In this document: in pieces, positions 2 to 50,037 of the stretch
Layout of the letters: each line of letters begins with the position of its first letter
Position numbering within the stretch: the stretch's first letter is position 1
Source of the DNA: Escherichia coli
GTDB taxonomy: Bacteria; Pseudomonadota; Gammaproteobacteria; Enterobacterales; Enterobacteriaceae
Length of the DNA stretch: 64,000 nt
Direction: 5' to 3' (one strand)
Assembly: GCF_003018255.1 (NCBI RefSeq)
Contig: NZ_CP027440.1
Translations under genes and position numbers: made by a program
The notes under the pieces: model-generated
What the model saw: only the letters and a program-made list of their open reading frames with translations
The model's database searches: none
What the model was told of the DNA's origin: nothing

Positions 2-2158
2 CAGGGCCATGAAACGCGGTATGAATACAACGCCGCCGGTGACCTGACCGCCGTCATTGCCCCGGACGGCAGCAGAAACGGGACACAGTACGATACGTGG
101 GGAAAGGCCATCCGTACCACGCAGGGTGGTCTGACGCGCAGTATGGAATACGATGCTGCCGGACGGGTCATCCGCCTGACCAGTGAAAACGGCAGCCACA
201 CCACCTTCCGTTACGATGTACTCGACCGGCTGATACAGGAAACCGGTTTTGACGGCCGCACACAGCGTTATCATCACGACCTGACCGGTAAACTTATCCG
301 CAGCGAGGATGAGGGGCTGGTCACCCACTGGCACTATGACGAAGCAGACCGCATCACGCACCGCACCGTGAAGGGTGAAACCGCAGAACAGTGGCGGTAC
401 GACGAACGCGGCTGGCTGACAGGCATCAGCCATCTCAGCGAAGGGCACCGGGTGACGGTGCATTACAGGTATGATGAGAAAGGCCGCCTGACCGGTGAGC
501 GCCAGACGGTGCATCACCCGCAGACGGAAGCACTGCTCTGGCAGCATGAGACCAGACATGCGTACAACGCGCAGGGGCTGGCGAACCGCTGTATACCGGA
601 CAGCCTGCCCGCCGTGGAATGGCTGACTTACGGCAGCGGCTGGCTGGCAGGCATGAAACTCGGCGACACACCGCTGGTGGATTTCACCCGTGACCGCCTG
701 CACCGGGAAACGCTGCGCAGCTTCGGCCGTTATGAACTCACCACCGCTTATACCTCTGCCGGGCAGTTACAGAGCCAGCACCTGAACAGCCTGCAGTATG
801 ACCGCGATTACACCTGGAACGACAACGGCGAACTCATCCGCATCAGCAGCCCGCGACAGACCCGGAGTTACAGCTACAGCGACTCCGGCAGGCTGACCGG
901 CGTCCACACCACCACCTCAAATCTGGATATCCGCATCCCGTATGCCACGGACCCGGCAGGTAACCGCCTGCCCGACCCGGAGCTGCACCCGGACAGCACC
1001 CTCAGCATGTGGCCGGATAACCGTATCGCCCGTGACGCGCACTATCTTTACCGGTATGACCGTCACGGCAGGCTGACAGAGAAAACCGACCTCATCCCGG
1101 AAGGGGTTATCCGCACGGATGATGAGCGGACTCACCGGTACCATTACGACAGCCGGCACCGGCTGGTGCACTACACGCGGACACAATATGCAGAGCCGCT
1201 GGTCGAAAGTCGCTATCTTTACGACCCGCTGGGCCGCAGGGTGGCAAAACGGGTATGGCGGCGTGAACGGGACCTGACGGGCTGGATGTCGCTGTCACGG
1301 AAACCGGAAGTGACCTGGTACGGCTGGGACGGCGACCGGCTGACCACGATACAGAACGACAGAACCCGCATCCAGACGGTTTATCAGCCGGGGAGCTTCA
1401 CGCCACTCATCAGGGTCGAAACCGCCACCGGAGAGCTGGCGAAAACGCAGCGCCGCAGCCTGGCGGATGCCCTTCAGCAGTCCGGCGGCGAAGACGGTGG
1501 CAGTGTGGTGTTCCCGCCGGTGCTGGTGCAGATGCTCGACCGGCTGGAAAGTGAAATCCTGGCTGACCGGGTGAGTGAGGAAAGCCGCCGCTGGCTGGCA
1601 TCGTGCGGCCTGACGGTGGAGCAGATACAAAACCAGATGGACCCGGTGTACACGCCGGCGCGAAAAATCCACCTGTACCACTGCGACCATCGCGGCCTGC
1701 CGCTGGCGCTTGTCAGCACGGAAGGGGCAACAGAATGGTGCGCAGAATACGATGAATGGGGCAACCTGCTGAATGAAGAGAACCCGCACCAGCTGCAGCA
1801 GCTCATCCGCCTGCCGGGTCAGCAGTATGATGAGGAGTCCGGCCTCTATTACAACCGCCACCGCTATTATGACCCGCTGCAGGGGCGGTATATCACTCAG
1901 GATCCGATTGGGCTTAAGGGGGGATGGAATTTTTATCAGTATCCGTTGAATCCGATCACTAATATAGATCCTTTAGGATTAGAAACACTAAAATGCATTA
2001 AGCCACTGCATTCAATGGGCGGAACTGGTGAAAGAAGCGGTCCAGATATATGGGGGAATCCGTTCTATCATCAATATCTTTGTGTCCCAGATGGTAAAGG
2101 GGACTATACTTGTGGTGGCCAAGACCAACGGGGAGAATCAAAAGGAGATGGTCTATAG
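2..2158 (+). CDS. rhsB: Rhs family protein, 3' part of core (YD repeats) through the DPxGL boundary plus a 57-aa C-terminal tip; 5' end lies upstream of the window
   Basis: Frame is open from position 2 with no stop until TAG at 2156-2158. Repeated YD/RYxYD motifs and the conserved core end [39 protein letters not shown] are present. Symbol assigned only from locus context (H-rpt yhhI and yhhJ-rbbA downstream). Confidence 0.85.
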
Positions 2159-23809: not shown

Positions 23810-23894
23810 TGCGTTAGATGATGGCTATCTCACTCCAGTCAGAGCCACCAACTCAGGGCTGGAAAGTAAAAAACCGACGCAAAGTCGGTTTTTT
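23810..23894 (+). ncRNA. agrA: agrA-like small RNA (dinQ-homologous antisense repeat)
   Basis: Repeat unit sharing GCTATCTCACTCC with dinQ (antisense) and ending in terminator CCGACGCAAAGTCGG plus TTTTTT; ends approximate. Confidence 0.65.
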
Positions 23895-24043
23895 ACATCC
23901 GGATTCGGACAAGGCCTGGTACGGCAGCGACCCGATGAAAGTATATAAATCCTCTTTCACCAACATGTATAGCAAACTGTCCCTCCGCCAGCTGAAGAAA
24001 TCGCTAACGCTTGCAATGTTAGCCACTGGCTAATAGTATTGAA

Positions 24044-24128
24044 CCGTTAGATGTGGGCATTCTCACTCCAGCCAGAGCCACCAACTCAGGGCTGGAAAGT
24101 AAAAAACCGACGCAAAGTCGGTTTTTTT
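24044..24128 (+). ncRNA. agrB: agrB-like small RNA (antisense regulator of dinQ)
   Basis: Second repeat unit; carries GCATTCTCACTCC exactly complementary to dinQ 23558-23570; same terminator hairpin plus T7. Confidence 0.65.
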
Positions 24129-24201
24129 ACGTCCTGATTCAGACCTCCTTTCAAATGAATACCCAACTCAAAATTCACACCTATTACCTTCCTCTGCACT
24201 T

Positions 24202-32379: not shown

Positions 32380-34362
32380 TTACCATTGATAACTCACGAA
32401 AATTTTTCCATTACGACCATCCTGTGGGATGCCTTGTGGCGACCAGTACTCTTTGTCGAAAGCGTTACCCAACACCAAAGTAGTGGTCATACCTTTGAGC
32501 GCCTGTTGTCCTTGATAACTGACGTAGAAATCATTCACGCCATAGCCTGGTTGTTTGCTGTAACTGCTGCTGATATGTGTTGAGCGATCGGCAAACGTAC
32601 CAACCCACCCAACAGAGAAGCCACTGTGAGCGATCGGAATATTCAGGGTGCTGGTAACGGTATCCGGGTTAATACTGGAGATATATTCGCCGGTATCGGT
32701 GTCTTTGCCGCGGGTACGGTTATAGGCCACATCAAGGCTAAACAGATCAGTGGTATATTTCGTCATCACATCCCAACCCCAGATTTTGGCGTTCGGGACG
32801 TTATACGACATAGTTGTCGCCGCCGCGAAATCGACGGTCGTGGAGATGTAATCCTTCGCTTTGGTATCAAAGTAGCTGGCTTTAAATTCCAGAGCATCAT
32901 TGGACAACATCAGGTCATCAAAACGCAGCCCAAAACCGTACTCCTGAGTTTCGTTAGTTTCCGGACGTAAGTTCGGGTTTGGCACCCAATAGTTGGTATA
33001 GAAGCGACCAATCGAGAAGTGCTTAGAATCGTTATACATTTCGCCCATCGTCGGGGCGCGGAATGCCTGAGCATATGAGCCAAATAACATCAGCCAGTTA
33101 GTCGGGTTGATAGTCATCCCCGCGCGAGATGACCATTTGTCGGCATCAACATCTTTGTAGCCGTCGCTGCTACCGCGATAACTGTCATAGCGGGTTCCGC
33201 CAAGCAGGGTAATCGGCAGATCGCGTAAGGTGATCTCATCTTGTAGCCAGCCAGAGCTAAAATCGATTTTTGCTTGCGGGAAGCCCGTCGTCGCGCCACC
33301 CGGATGTTGTTCCTGACGATAATACTCACCGCCATATGTCAGTAAGTGAGAAGCGAAACTGTCGGCAAATAGAGTGGAACGGTTCTCCAGCCTTGCTCCT
33401 TTTGTTATCTGTTCACGATACTCGCCGGAACTCCCCGTGTTTTGCGCATTAATACGGACTTCCGACCAGTAAATTTTTGCATCTGCATTTAACCAGTCGT
33501 TACCCTGCGGGGCGAGTTTATAAGAAAGCTGCGCATCGCGTTGAATTGTTGAACGATCGACCATCGGGTTGCTGCTATCAGAAGCTTCAACGGTCTGCGG
33601 ATTTTTTGGTTCACGCGCGTCGTTGTTGTAGTAACGCACTAAACCGCTCAGAGACTGAGCTGAATCAATTTGCCAGGTCCCTTTCGCCAGCATGTTATTA
33701 ATGGATTCGTCATTCGGCGCGGTTTCACCATTGCTCTGGCGTAAATCACCCCGATCGCGACTGGACCAGGCCACAATACCATCCAGATTTTCAGTTCGCC
33801 CAAACGCGCTCGCGCCTAATCCCAGGCTATGGTCCCCCGTGCCGCCAGTACCAAAGACACGAAAACCACTGCTTTGTCCTTCCTGCAATAAATCTTTTGC
33901 ATCGACCGTATCGTAGGAGATCACTCCACCCAGCGCGCCACTGCCATACAGTAATGCTGAAGGTCCGCGAACAATCTCAACACGCTTGATCAGCGCCGGA
34001 TCGAGAAAAGTGCCATTCAGGTGTCCGGTATCCGTTCCCTGGCGAACACCATCGACAAGAACCAGCACGCCGCGATGATCATAGCCACGCATATTTACAT
34101 CCTGACCGTTGGTTCGTCCGGTACCATCAAGAGTAATTCCAGGAACATGACGCAGCAGATCGGTGGCTGAAGTAGCCGTTTGATTTTCAGGAGCGGAAGT
34201 GTCGATGACGCTGACCATCATAGGCGCTTCGAAGGAACTACGGGCATTCCCCGTTGCCGTAACGGTCATGGTTTCAGTAGCAAAAGCAAACGTTGGCAAG
34301 GTGGCAGAAACAGCCAAAGCCAACAAACTCAAACGCAACGAGGTAAATTGCGGACGTGACAT
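32380..34362 (-). CDS. chuA: TonB-dependent outer membrane haem/haemoglobin receptor
   Basis: 660 aa; signal peptide, plug domain, C-terminal beta-barrel ending in aromatic residue (...YQW); SD GGAG 8 nt upstream of ATG. Confidence 0.9.
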   Translation of the reverse strand: MSRPQFTSLRLSLLALAVSATLPTFAFATETMTVTATGNARSSFEAPMMVSVIDTSAPENQTATSATDLLRHVPGITLDGTGRTNGQDVNMRGYDHRGVLVLVDGVRQGTDTGHLNGTFLDPALIKRVEIVRGPSALLYGSGALGGVISYDTVDAKDLLQEGQSSGFRVFGTGGTGDHSLGLGASAFGRTENLDGIVAWSSRDRGDLRQSNGETAPNDESINNMLAKGTWQIDSAQSLSGLVRYYNNDAREPKNPQTVEASDSSNPMVDRSTIQRDAQLSYKLAPQGNDWLNADAKIYWSEVRINAQNTGSSGEYREQITKGARLENRSTLFADSFASHLLTYGGEYYRQEQHPGGATTGFPQAKIDFSSGWLQDEITLRDLPITLLGGTRYDSYRGSSDGYKDVDADKWSSRAGMTINPTNWLMLFGSYAQAFRAPTMGEMYNDSKHFSIGRFYTNYWVPNPNLRPETNETQEYGFGLRFDDLMLSNDALEFKASYFDTKAKDYISTTVDFAAATTMSYNVPNAKIWGWDVMTKYTTDLFSLDVAYNRTRGKDTDTGEYISSINPDTVTSTLNIPIAHSGFSVGWVGTFADRSTHISSSYSKQPGYGVNDFYVSYQGQQALKGMTTTLVLGNAFDKEYWSPQGIPQDGRNGKIFVSYQW

Positions 34363-34651
34363 AGCGATTCTCCATGAGGAAAATAAAAAATGCTGGCTGC
34401 CTGGGTTAATACCGGGGTGGCTGGCGAAAAATAAATTTATTTAAAATTCAGAGCGATAATATTCGCCGGGTGAGTTTACAGGCGTTTATATCCCATGAAA
34501 TTGCCTGGTATCTCGGCAAATACGCAAAAGCACGCCCTCTTTGTCAGGCAAACCGATATGCCCCATCAGGAGTGAAGAGCGCTGTGCGTTACCCCTTGTA
34601 AATGATATGGCTTTGTTATCCATATGGCCGTATTTTGTTAAATGCAAACGT

Positions 34652-34670
34652 GATAATGAGAATTATTATC
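34652..34670 (-). promoter_or_regulatory. Fur box upstream of chuA
   Basis: GATAATGAGAATTATTATC, close match to the Fur consensus GATAATGATAATCATTATC; about 290 bp upstream of the chuA ATG, implying a long 5' UTR. Confidence 0.7.
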
Positions 34671-35003
34671 GATCAATTTTTTATGATCAAGCTTTTTTTT
34701 AACCGCCATTAACACAATAAACAGGGGGTTATGAAACTTATCCTGCGCCCTGGAAACCACTTTGCTTTTATGGTTATTCCCCCATGACCTCATCACTAAA
34801 CTTTGTCGTTAACAGTGATAATTTTCTCTTCTCTTTGCTCTGCAAGCCGCGATATCTCTGGGTTCTCAGCTTTTTCCCGCGCTGAAATTTAGTCGGTAAC
34901 AAGAACGTTAGCTGACGAAGCATCTTGATAAAAATCAAAAATAAATACGCTTGTAACGCCGTGCGTATTGAATCGACGGTTGTATTTCATATATAACTCA
35001 AAT

Positions 35004-35022
35004 GATAATCATGATCATTCTC
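35004..35022 (+). promoter_or_regulatory. Fur box upstream of chuT
   Basis: GATAATCATGATCATTCTC immediately upstream of the proposed chuT start. Confidence 0.65.
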
Positions 35023-35045
35023 AATTTGATAAGAGTTCTCATATT

Positions 35046-35960
35046 ATGCCAAGGATCATCACCAGGCCGTTTCTTTTTTCCCCACTGACGTTATGTATTT
35101 CAGCCGTGGCCTCTGCCGCGAAGACCGCGGTAAAACGAAAAAAATTGTTTACGGCAGTACTGGCTCTTAGCTGGGCTTTTAGCGTAACGGCTACCGAACG
35201 TATCGTGGTCGCAGGAGGATCGCTGACGGAGCTAATCTACGCGATGGGCGCTGGCGAACGCGTGGTTGGTGTCGATGAAACGACATCTTATCCACCAGAA
35301 ACCGCCAAACTGCCGCATATTGGTTACTGGAAACAACTCAGCAGCGAAGGCATTTTGTCACTTCGCCCGGATAGCGTAATTACCTGGCAGGATGCAGGAC
35401 CGCAAATTGTGCTCGACCAACTGCGGGCGCAAAAAGTCAACGTCGTCACTCTGCCGCGTGTACCAGCCACCCTTGAGCAGATGTACGCCAACATTCGCCA
35501 ACTGGCAAAAACGTTACAGGTTCCTGAACAAGGCGAGGCGCTGGTGACACAGATCAACCAACGCCTGGAGCGAGTACAGCAAAACGTGGCGGCCAAAAAA
35601 GCCCCGGTTAAAGCCATGTTTATTCTCTCCGCAGGCGGAAGTGCGCCACAGGTTGCCGGTAAAGGCAGCGTCGCGGACGCCATTCTTTCGCTTGCCGGAG
35701 CAGAAAACGTCGCTACCCACCAGCAGTACAAAAGCTACAGCGCGGAATCGCTGATTGCGGCTAACCCTGAAGTGATTGTCGTCACCTCACAAATGGTCGA
35801 TGGCGATATTAATCGGCTACGTTCTATTGCCGGAATTACCCACACTGCCGCATGGAAAAACCAGCGCATTATCACCGTTGATCAAAACCTGATTCTGGGA
35901 ATGGGTCCGCGTATTGCTGATGTCGTTGAGTCTTTACACCAGCAGCTTTGGCCGCAATAA
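35046..35960 (+). CDS. chuT: Periplasmic haem-binding protein
   Basis: Class III periplasmic binding protein sequence; start is uncertain. The ORF track begins at 34968, but that ATG lies upstream of the Fur box, so the second ATG at 35046 is chosen. Confidence 0.7.
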   Translation: MPRIITRPFLFSPLTLCISAVASAAKTAVKRKKLFTAVLALSWAFSVTATERIVVAGGSLTELIYAMGAGERVVGVDETTSYPPETAKLPHIGYWKQLSSEGILSLRPDSVITWQDAGPQIVLDQLRAQKVNVVTLPRVPATLEQMYANIRQLAKTLQVPEQGEALVTQINQRLERVQQNVAAKKAPVKAMFILSAGGSAPQVAGKGSVADAILSLAGAENVATHQQYKSYSAESLIAANPEVIVVTSQMVDGDINRLRSIAGITHTAAWKNQRIITVDQNLILGMGPRIADVVESLHQQLWPQ

Positions 35961-43945: not shown

Positions 43946-44283
43946 TCAGGACATAAGCAACTGAAATTGATGGCTGGCATGACGAGGGATGCAGATGCTG
44001 ATTTCATTACCCCCGGTGATTACTAAAGGAGAGGCGAAAACGACTTTATTCCCCTGGTATATGTATCCACCAGTAGAACCCTTCGTTGCCCGAATGCTGG
44101 CAGGAACTGTTGGCAGAACGGCAACATTTTTTTTGTCGTTGACCTCACCATGTCGATCACTGTGCCTGTATCCCACCTTACTGGCTGACAACCCCACTAT
44201 GCCGCTGGTCTGTAAATCCCTCATATCTCTCCTCGCGCGCAATTTAAAGAACCGTTATTTCTCAAGAATTTTCAGGGACTAAA

Positions 44284-49670: not shown

Positions 49671-49916
49671 GACTATCCCTTATATTTCATTGCTGCGATT
49701 ATTTCAATTTCAGTATACTAATGAAATGATGCCTGACTGTTTCTTAGCGCAAAAACTGCCAGATTTGGTAGGACCAAAATTTATCCACAAAGTAGTTTTG
49801 CATAACAGTTAATTGATAATAAGTAAATGCAACACGAATATATTTTCGCACAGCGTATAGCTTATGTTTATAAAAAAATGGCTGATCTTATTTCCAGTAA
49901 AAGTTATATTTAACTT

Positions 49917-50021
49917 ACTGAGAGCACAAAGTTTCCCGTGCCAACAGGGAGTGTTATAACGGTTTATTAGTCTGGAGACGGCAGACTATCCTCTTCCCGG
50001 TCCCCTATGCCGGGTTTTTTT
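49917..50021 (+). ncRNA. gadY: GadY small RNA, cis-antisense to the gadX 3' UTR
   Basis: Sequence ACTGAGAGCACAAAGTTTCCCGTGCCAACAGGGAG... matches GadY as recalled and ends in terminator CCCGG-N10-CCGGG plus TTTTTTT. Confidence 0.8.
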
Positions 50022-50037
50022 ATGTCTGAGTAAAACT

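Follow-up and report, generated by a model that had tools for sequence, protein, structure and literature searches.

The window analysed here is a stretch of 64,000 nucleotides from the Escherichia coli contig NZ_CP027440.1, and the element in question is the region upstream of chuA, the gene for a heme receptor that is transcribed from the minus strand. Segment 34363..34680 on that strand holds a Fur-repressed promoter and a chuA leader of about 291 nt ending in the published shuA/chuA FourU RNA thermometer, a reading to which we assign a probability of about 0.93. The feature was recognised correctly in a first-pass annotation made from the letters of the window alone, but it is already known, and that annotation re-derives published knowledge. 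The genes and sites that carry this reading are as follows.

32380..34362, minus strand: chuA coding sequence, TonB-dependent heme/hemoglobin receptor of 660 amino acids (open reading frame list and RefSeq annotation of strain 104)
34360..34391, minus strand: shuA/chuA FourU RNA thermometer including the start codon, Rfam RF02597 (cmscan)
34367..34384, minus strand: thermometer hairpin with 5′ arm AUUUUCC (34384..34378), loop UCAU (34377..34374) and 3′ arm GGAGAAU (34373..34367), in the minimum-free-energy (MFE) and centroid structures
34370..34373, minus strand: Shine–Dalgarno (SD) core GGAG, its last G 7 nt before the AUG (read from the sequence)
34652..34670, minus strand: Fur box GATAATAATTCTCATTATC, overlapping the −10 element and +1
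34653, minus strand: transcription start (+1), within about 2 nt, transferred from O157 Sakai by indel-free alignment
34662..34690, minus strand: predicted sigma-70-like promoter TTGATC-17-AATAAT (consensus scan, 9 of 12 matches)

The 660-codon open reading frame (ORF) of chuA starts at the AUG in 34362..34360. The region is present in 2236 of 5426 complete E. coli genomes searched by megablast and is annotated ChuA/ShuA every time; in strain 104, whose leader region is 100% identical to that of the window, the RefSeq name is 'chuA: TonB-dependent heme/hemoglobin receptor ChuA/ShuA'. The gene order in a strain with a 100% identical 381-nt leader region is yhiD, chuVUYXWT, chuA-chuS, dctR and slp.

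A Fur box had been proposed about 290 bp upstream of the chuA ATG, implying a leader of roughly 250–300 nt. The box is found at the promoter, at 34670..34652 (290–308 nt 5′ of the ATG), with two to three mismatches to the 19-bp consensus GATAATGATAATCATTATC (chance expectation, 0.02 per 64-kb window), and in the consensus scan it overlaps the core promoter. Fur dependence of chuA itself is taken from the literature. The proposed leader length agrees with the start mapped by differential RNA sequencing (dRNA-seq) in O157 Sakai, which gives a 291-nt untranslated region (UTR; PMC9002310). The leader of the window aligns with the O157 leader without indels, so that position +n corresponds to 34654 − n; as a cross-check, U273 in the numbering of Sy and Tree and −19 in that of Kouse et al. 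are the same base, window position 34381. In its middle part, the leader of the window is the allele of enterohaemorrhagic E. coli (EHEC) and Shigella type (96.3% identity to O157, 86% to B2 strains).

The SD-occluding hairpin

Upstream of the AUG, the minus strand reads ...AGCAUUUUUUAUUUUCCUCAUGGAGAAUCGCUAUG, in which the sequence quoted 5′ of the SD by the first-pass annotation is present. Positions 34391..34360 read AUUUUUUAUUUUCCUCAUGGAGAAUCGCUAUG and match RF02597 ('shuA/chuA 5′ UTR thermoregulator') with 60.1 bits against a gathering threshold of 58, all 32 of 32 positions being equal to the consensus and the stem being the same (E = 9.5e-9 in a search of 901 nt, 6.8e-7 for the whole window). 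The stem has seven pairs (A34384-U34367, U34383-A34368, U34382-A34369, U34381.G34370, U34380-A34371, C34379-G34372 and C34378-G34373). The four consecutive uridines U34383–U34380 pair with A34368, A34369, G34370 and A34371 of the SD region, just 5′ of the start codon. The pairing of a U-rich stretch with the SD therefore stands, as a 7-bp hairpin, but the stretch quoted for it, UUUUCCUC, is slightly too long, with its final UC lying in the loop.

RNA structure prediction had been named as a check. When the 32-mer is folded alone, the hairpin is both the MFE and the centroid structure (−6.1 kcal/mol at 37°C; z = −2.83, with 5 of 200 shuffles folding equally well), and it recurs in the MFE and centroid folds of the full 321-nt leader. 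With rising temperature the predicted hairpin energy weakens from −8.4 kcal/mol (25°C) to −6.1 (37°C) and −5.1 (42°C). With 12 nt of extra context, a 4-bp outer helix between GCAU (34393..34390) and AUGU (34362..34359) is also predicted (−8.2 kcal/mol), which would cover the start codon too.

RF02597 derives from the study of Kouse et al. (2013; PMC3660397, PLoS One 8:e63781), in which ShuA/ChuA was made at 37°C and poorly at 25°C with an unchanged mRNA level. This work supplies the temperature-dependent reporter fusions that had been named as a further check. The leader of shuA, or that of the chuA gene in UPEC (uropathogenic E. coli), is sufficient for higher translation at 37°C than at 25°C of gfp and bgaB reporters driven by foreign promoters in E. 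coli DH5α (PMC3660397). The U-19C substitution turns U.G into C-G; the hairpin becomes more stable and expression at 37°C falls. With U-19A (chuA) or C-17A (shuA), the hairpin is destabilised and expression at 25°C rises (PMC3660397). U273A in EHEC chuA increases expression 2.6-fold at 25°C (Sy and Tree, 2022; PMC9002310). In silico, U-19C makes the stem stronger (−8.7 kcal/mol at 37°C) and U-19A breaks it, and these modelled effects match the published phenotypes (PMC3660397, PMC9002310). Energies of mutant stems calculated for a forced structure were discarded, because non-canonical pairs had been imposed and the values were meaningless. Since the hairpin of the window is identical in sequence to the one mutagenised in the published work, the temperature control put forward in the first-pass annotation is supported for the window.

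According to the mechanism proposed, scarcity of iron would cause Fur to leave the box at 34652..34670, allowing the leader to be transcribed. Its last 25 nt would fold into the 7-bp hairpin, in which the four uridines and CC (34384..34378) are predicted to pair with GGAGAAU (34373..34367). At about 25°C the hairpin would hold and block ribosome binding; at 37°C the weak U-A and U.G pairs would open so frequently that the SD could be captured by the 30S subunit, leading to ChuA synthesis. Synthesis of the heme receptor would in this way be limited to the coincidence of two host cues, low iron (sensed by Fur) and body temperature. The locus is a textbook case of layered RNA control, and confirming it here adds no new biology; the outcome validates the reading of such a feature from raw sequence.

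Several observations weigh against this reading or limit how far computation supports it. Melting is not predicted: in a nearest-neighbour model that lacks competition by the ribosome, the SD is more than 99% paired from 15 to 45°C (unpaired probability, at most 0.01), so that computation alone cannot show thermosensing and this step rests on the published experiments. Those experiments come from other strains, and +1 is likewise transferred and not from the strain of the window. The 321-nt leader as a whole does not exceed shuffled sequence in stability (z = 0.22). In Yersinia enterocolitica, a FourU-like hairpin upstream of hemR1 is not thermoregulated (Jaworska et al., 2018; PMC6158557), and a hairpin alone is therefore no proof of thermosensing. 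Finally, composition-preserving shuffles of the upstream arm pair with the SD at a mean probability of 0.62, compared with 0.90 observed. This null discriminates poorly because richness in U and C is by itself enough for pairing with a purine-rich SD, and it is the one result that speaks for a chance complementarity with no function in the strain of the window. Such an accident is nevertheless extremely improbable given the Rfam match over the complete 32 positions at the E value above, the near-invariance of the segment in 2234 genomes and the published mutagenesis of the identical sequence (PMC3660397).

The same region is a target of other regulators, and two of the sites concerned are listed here.

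34383, minus strand: published bicyclomycin-sensitive (Rho-dependent) termination site, +271, transferred from O157 Sakai
34386..34414, minus strand: predicted CyaR pairing site, core 34387..34400 with CyaR nt 20–33 (windowed RNAduplex)

Hfq crosslinking peaks at the chuA ribosome-binding site, where RyhB and Esr41 repress; Rho terminates transcription prematurely at +271, the 5′ edge of the hairpin; and CyaR activates chuA via a site about 15 nt 5′ of the SD, independently of the hairpin (PMC9002310). The predicted CyaR duplex is the best along the leader (−20.1 kcal/mol, with a CyaR sequence verified as RF00112), and its modelled position agrees with the published one (PMC9002310). Pairing full-length CyaR with the full leader in RNAduplex gave unrealistic long-range duplexes and was dropped in favour of the windowed search. 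From these data the hairpin could be viewed as mainly a platform for Hfq and small RNAs (RyhB, Esr41 and CyaR) combined with coupling of translation to Rho, with temperature dependence as a minor by-product, and both the absence of predicted melting in the physiological range and the unresponsive Yersinia hairpin (PMC6158557) would suit that view. We consider it improbable, since single-base changes in stem stability shift expression as predicted at 25 and 37°C in heterologous reporters (PMC3660397) and U273A acts in the same direction at 25°C in EHEC (PMC9002310); moreover, the two roles are compatible and not mutually exclusive. The thermometer remains the preferred reading of the hairpin.

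Conservation within E. coli is concentrated at the two ends of the leader. Across all 2234 complete E. coli genomes that are positive for chuA, identity over the last 88 nt does not fall below 97.7%. Against the B2 strain APEC O18, the promoter, thermometer and coding sequence are 98–100% identical, whereas the mid-leader (34421..34670) has 66–86% identity per 50-nt window. Two E. coli leader alleles have already been noted in the literature; the thermometer segment is the same in both, and no segment of the locus diverges faster than the mid-leader. The divergence exceeds what neutral drift alone would give and suggests an old recombined haplotype.

For comparison across genera, 80 loci with a chuA orthologue were retrieved from other species, and 74 rows (the window and 73 orthologous leaders from more than 15 genera) were aligned. 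The RF02597 threshold is reached only in four Escherichia loci, including E. albertii, and in 0 of 16 loci of other genera. RNAalifold applied to 54 orthologous leader ends in the raw cross-genus alignment gives no consensus SD stem, a further point against the thermometer reading; indels shift the register of the stem between genera, and individual folds were therefore tabulated from the SD side. In these MFE folds, the SD positions A+2, G+3 and A+4 pair with U in 58–60 of 62 unique leader ends, and the next stem position is C-G in 40, U.G in 7, U-A in 6 and A-U in 5. Predicted occlusion of the SD by a U-run is general among the orthologues, and the short AUUUUCC arm is an Escherichia variant. 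Orthologous stems are not to be assumed to be thermometers, as the Yersinia hemR1 hairpin illustrates. The receptor gene of one retrieved locus, Citrobacter koseri NCTC10786, has no in-frame ATG in its N-terminal region, with a shifted upstream frame, and may be a pseudogene or contain a sequencing frameshift.

The mid-leader and its proposed relation to hemP

Between promoter and thermometer, the leader contains three further features.

34437..34477, minus strand: published strongly repressive segment, required for Rho sensitivity, +177..+217 (truncation data, PMC9002310)
34486..34623, minus strand: 45-codon ORF MDNKAISF...QFHGI, by interpretation a decayed hemP relic (colinearity with hemP)
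34523..34550, minus strand: small hairpin and U-tract (terminator-like scan)

The Fur box lies 300–320 nt 5′ of the receptor ATG in nearly all orthologous loci, and in 70 of 74 the interval between the two (about 300 nt) is filled by an intact hemP; the four loci without hemP are all Escherichia. In Enterobacter cloacae, for example, positions 937..1125 of the retrieved locus (L047) encode MSPTDNSTATQ..., which matches Pfam hemP PF10636 with E = 8.7e-18 and NCBIfam NF007559 with 91 bits (cutoff, 77). The distance to the Fur box is 419–509 nt instead of about 305 in Escherichia sp. MOD1-EC7003 and five Buttiauxella loci (L040, L043, L044, L053 and L071), which implies that about 110–200 nt have been inserted within the leader or the hemP region.

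In E. coli the leader runs colinear with hemP and retains both the ATGGATAAC start (34623) and a ...CTGA...AAATAAA end; the repressive segment 34437..34477 aligns opposite the 3′ end of hemP in other genera, ...GCCGGAAAACTGATCCTGACTAAATAA, which encodes GKLILTK-stop. In pairwise comparisons of leader DNA with hemP regions, z is 3.7–5.7 in 4 of 10 genera; two genera give 2.5, and the other four about 1 or lower. On the basis of synteny and this residual DNA similarity, the mid-leader may be interpreted as a decayed hemP relic. Three results at the protein and profile level speak against such an origin. Three-frame translations of the E. coli leader score no better than shuffles against a HemP hidden Markov model (HMM) built from 66 orthologues; a scan of the E. 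coli leader translation against NCBIfam yields no match; and nhmmer gives only 0.9–4.5 bits compared with a shuffle maximum of 1.4, using a profile from a loosely trimmed alignment. In addition, the 45-codon ORF lacks the HemP C-terminal motif H..G..Y.LR.T..GKLILTK. With no HMM or NCBIfam signal, ORF 34623..34486 is not a member of the HemP family and would at most be a decayed relic.

These weak scores would be expected if the long leader contained no gene remnant and were instead a purpose-built multi-hairpin regulatory RNA or a functional leader peptide. The 45-codon ORF exists, and Hfq peaks, truncation effects and three Term-seq 3′ ends mark the mid-leader as regulatory (PMC9002310). Furthermore, the 30-nt block 34523..34552 on the minus strand, CUUUGCCUGACAAAGAGGGCGUGCUUUUGC, is identical in the two divergent E. 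coli leader alleles; it contains the small hairpin and U-tract, and the Term-seq 3′ end at +129 (PMC9002310), which corresponds to 34525, lies within that U-tract. The block may act as a weak attenuator, or a leader-derived RNA may end there. A functional leader peptide was rejected, because an SD is missing from the ORF, Escherichia alleles vary in its length and frame (45, 53 and 34 amino acids), and codon differences are mostly non-synonymous (10, compared with 2 synonymous). The purpose-built alternative as a whole also has to accommodate the fast divergence of the mid-leader, an overall fold no more stable than shuffles, the presence of intact hemP in most orthologous loci within an interval bounded by the same Fur box and C-rich motifs, and the DNA similarity to hemP in part of the tests; we regard it as unlikely.

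Decay of hemP fits the rapid divergence of the mid-leader, its Rho sensitivity and the published absence of a hemP homologue from the Shigella locus (PMC6158557). In the history proposed, the leader would owe its length to occupying the place of hemP and of the spacer between hemP and the receptor gene; hemP would have decayed in Escherichia and Shigella, and the C-rich motifs of the spacer and the SD-occluding U-run would have been retained. A dead hemP gene would give an evolutionary reason for the unusually long leader. Wei et al. (2017; PMC5458455) wrote of the rest of the shuA leader that its role "remains unknown". The hemP relic, together with the C-rich element described next, is the only part of this analysis that may go further than the literature consulted.

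C-rich motifs upstream of the hairpin

Two C-rich motifs that resemble the HmuP-responsive element (HPRE) lie between the position of the hemP stop codon and the SD stem.

34392..34405, minus strand: C-rich motif 2, CCCAGGCAGCCAGC, HPRE-like, overlapping the predicted CyaR site; almost invariant in the 74-row alignment
34412..34425, minus strand: C-rich motif 1, GCCAGCCACCCCGG, HPRE-like; almost invariant across genera

In the orthologous loci they take the form GCCAGCCACCC(A/C)GG and CCCAGGCAGCCAGC, near-invariant in all genera, and their conservation reaches the Budviciaceae, in which the receptor is only 57–59% identical. Motif 2 ends 26–32 nt 5′ of the ATG in most loci. The combination GCCAGCC-N(0-30)-CAGCCAGC is found a single time in the 64-kb window and a single time in each chuA-positive E. 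coli genome, and a search of E. coli genomes for another copy of the element found none. The two motifs form a mirror repeat, and ViennaRNA folds them into a hairpin of four 2-bp G-C blocks split by tandem C.A/A.C mismatches; covariation lends this hairpin no support, as both arms are invariant. The predicted CyaR duplex overlaps motif 2 as well as the GCAU that would form part of the outer helix. One natural deletion affects the region: E. coli O16:H6 CU37RT-2 has lost 48 nt of the leader between short AT-rich direct repeats, including both C-rich motifs and the predicted CyaR site but sparing the thermometer hairpin, and carries in addition a U-to-C change at −5, where an A-U pair closes the stem.

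The HPRE is characterised by repeats of the GCCAGCC type that lie near the ATG in the 5′ UTR of a gene for a TonB-dependent heme receptor, and the chuA leader shows this arrangement when compared with the two Chromobacterium violaceum examples in PMC9131926. Sigma-54 or extracytoplasmic function (ECF) promoters, and pairing with CsrA, OmrA/B, ArcZ or RyhB, were considered only informally for the motifs and were dropped for want of convincing complementarity. E. coli also keeps an unlinked hemP homologue, ydiE, between aroH and selO (63 amino acids; E. coli FDAARGOS_1277), preceded by a Fur-box-like site, GATAATAAGAATCATTGTT. It is conceivable, though rather doubtful, that the chuA leader combines a decayed hemP with an intact HPRE-like motif that is read in trans by YdiE, an orphan, Fur-regulated HemP homologue, adding heme-responsive post-transcriptional activation of chuA to the thermometer. 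Competition or cooperation at motif 2 could, in such a model, explain the so far unexplained activation by CyaR. The interest of the element is that 34 nt conserved from Escherichia to the Budviciaceae overlap the CyaR site and resemble the target of a HemP/HmuP/ChuP regulator; if YdiE does act on it, an uncharacterised protein of the Fur regulon would gain a function and chuA a heme-sensing input.

Comparison with known systems

Other RNA features of the window fall outside the chuA leader.

23814..23897 and 24047..24130, plus strand: AgrB, two copies (Rfam, gathering level)
35004..35045, plus strand: chuT (shuT) leader of 42 nt, chuT ATG at 35046, with its own Fur box at 35004..35022 (3 mismatches)
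44063..44134, plus strand: ES205 (Rfam, gathering level)
49914..50026, plus strand: GadY (Rfam, gathering level)

AgrB, ES205 and GadY fit the context around the chu locus, which runs from arsR-dinQ/agrAB to the gad acid-fitness island.

The closest known system is the shuA/chuA thermoregulator RF02597 itself, which shares with the window the same 32-nt sequence, the UUUUCC/GGAGAA hairpin, the UCAU loop, the site before the AUG and a long, Fur-controlled leader; no difference in the thermometer is detectable. The shuT/chuT thermometer belongs to the same locus, where it is served by the divergent promoter, and is also controlled by Fur and temperature, but it is a single hsp17-like hairpin and not a FourU element (Wei et al., 2017; PMC5458455). 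The 42-nt chuT leader at 35004..35045 of the window matches this published thermometer.

Salmonella agsA resembles chuA in that four uridines pair with the SD in a short, weak hairpin and translation is higher at 37°C and above. It is reportedly the founding FourU element, described by Waldminghaus and colleagues in 2007. Unlike chuA, agsA is a heat-shock gene with an unrelated sequence and a short leader of two hairpins, whereas chuA is a virulence and iron gene in whose 291-nt leader only the 3′-most hairpin senses temperature. The Rfam FourU family has no match in the window. In the study of the chuA thermometer, agsA served as the positive control (PMC3660397).

The hemR1 gene of Y. enterocolitica encodes an orthologous receptor (69% identity to ShuA) and likewise has a U-run predicted to pair with the SD, located in the hemP-hemR spacer, homologous in position to the 3′ portion of chuA's leader; it differs in an unpaired G-G within the stem and in an intact hemP (PMC6158557). 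In Citrobacter, Enterobacter, Kluyvera, Lelliottia, Leclercia and other genera, where the receptor gene is linked to hemP, a U-run is predicted to pair with GGAGA(G/A/U) and is preceded by the same CAGCCAGC motif. Most genera other than Escherichia have a distal anti-SD (AGCGCUUUUC), which pairs with GGAGAGUUGCU in a predicted stem of about 11 bp that contains a bulge and a loop of 7–9 nt (−9 to −11 kcal/mol) and that scores below the RF02597 threshold.

With the HPREs of Ensifer meliloti shmR and C. violaceum chuR/vbuA (Amarelle et al., 2019, as cited in PMC9131926 and PMC9241770), the C-rich motifs share repeated GCCAGCC/CAGCCAGC sequences in the 5′ UTR of a TonB-dependent heme receptor. The C. 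violaceum chuR HPRE is quoted in PMC9131926 as CCCGCAAGCCAGCCGACAGCCAGCCAGCG at −26 (...GCCAGCCGACAGCCAGCCAGCG), and motifs of the type in the window end about 26–32 nt before the ATG, with hemP/hmuP adjoining in 70 of 74 loci. By contrast, a spacer of about 17 nt lies between the motifs here, which are arranged as a mirror repeat, whereas the C. violaceum copies are adjacent, and the adjoining hemP has been lost in Escherichia. HPREs are stated to be absent from gammaproteobacteria in a secondary source (PMC9241770).

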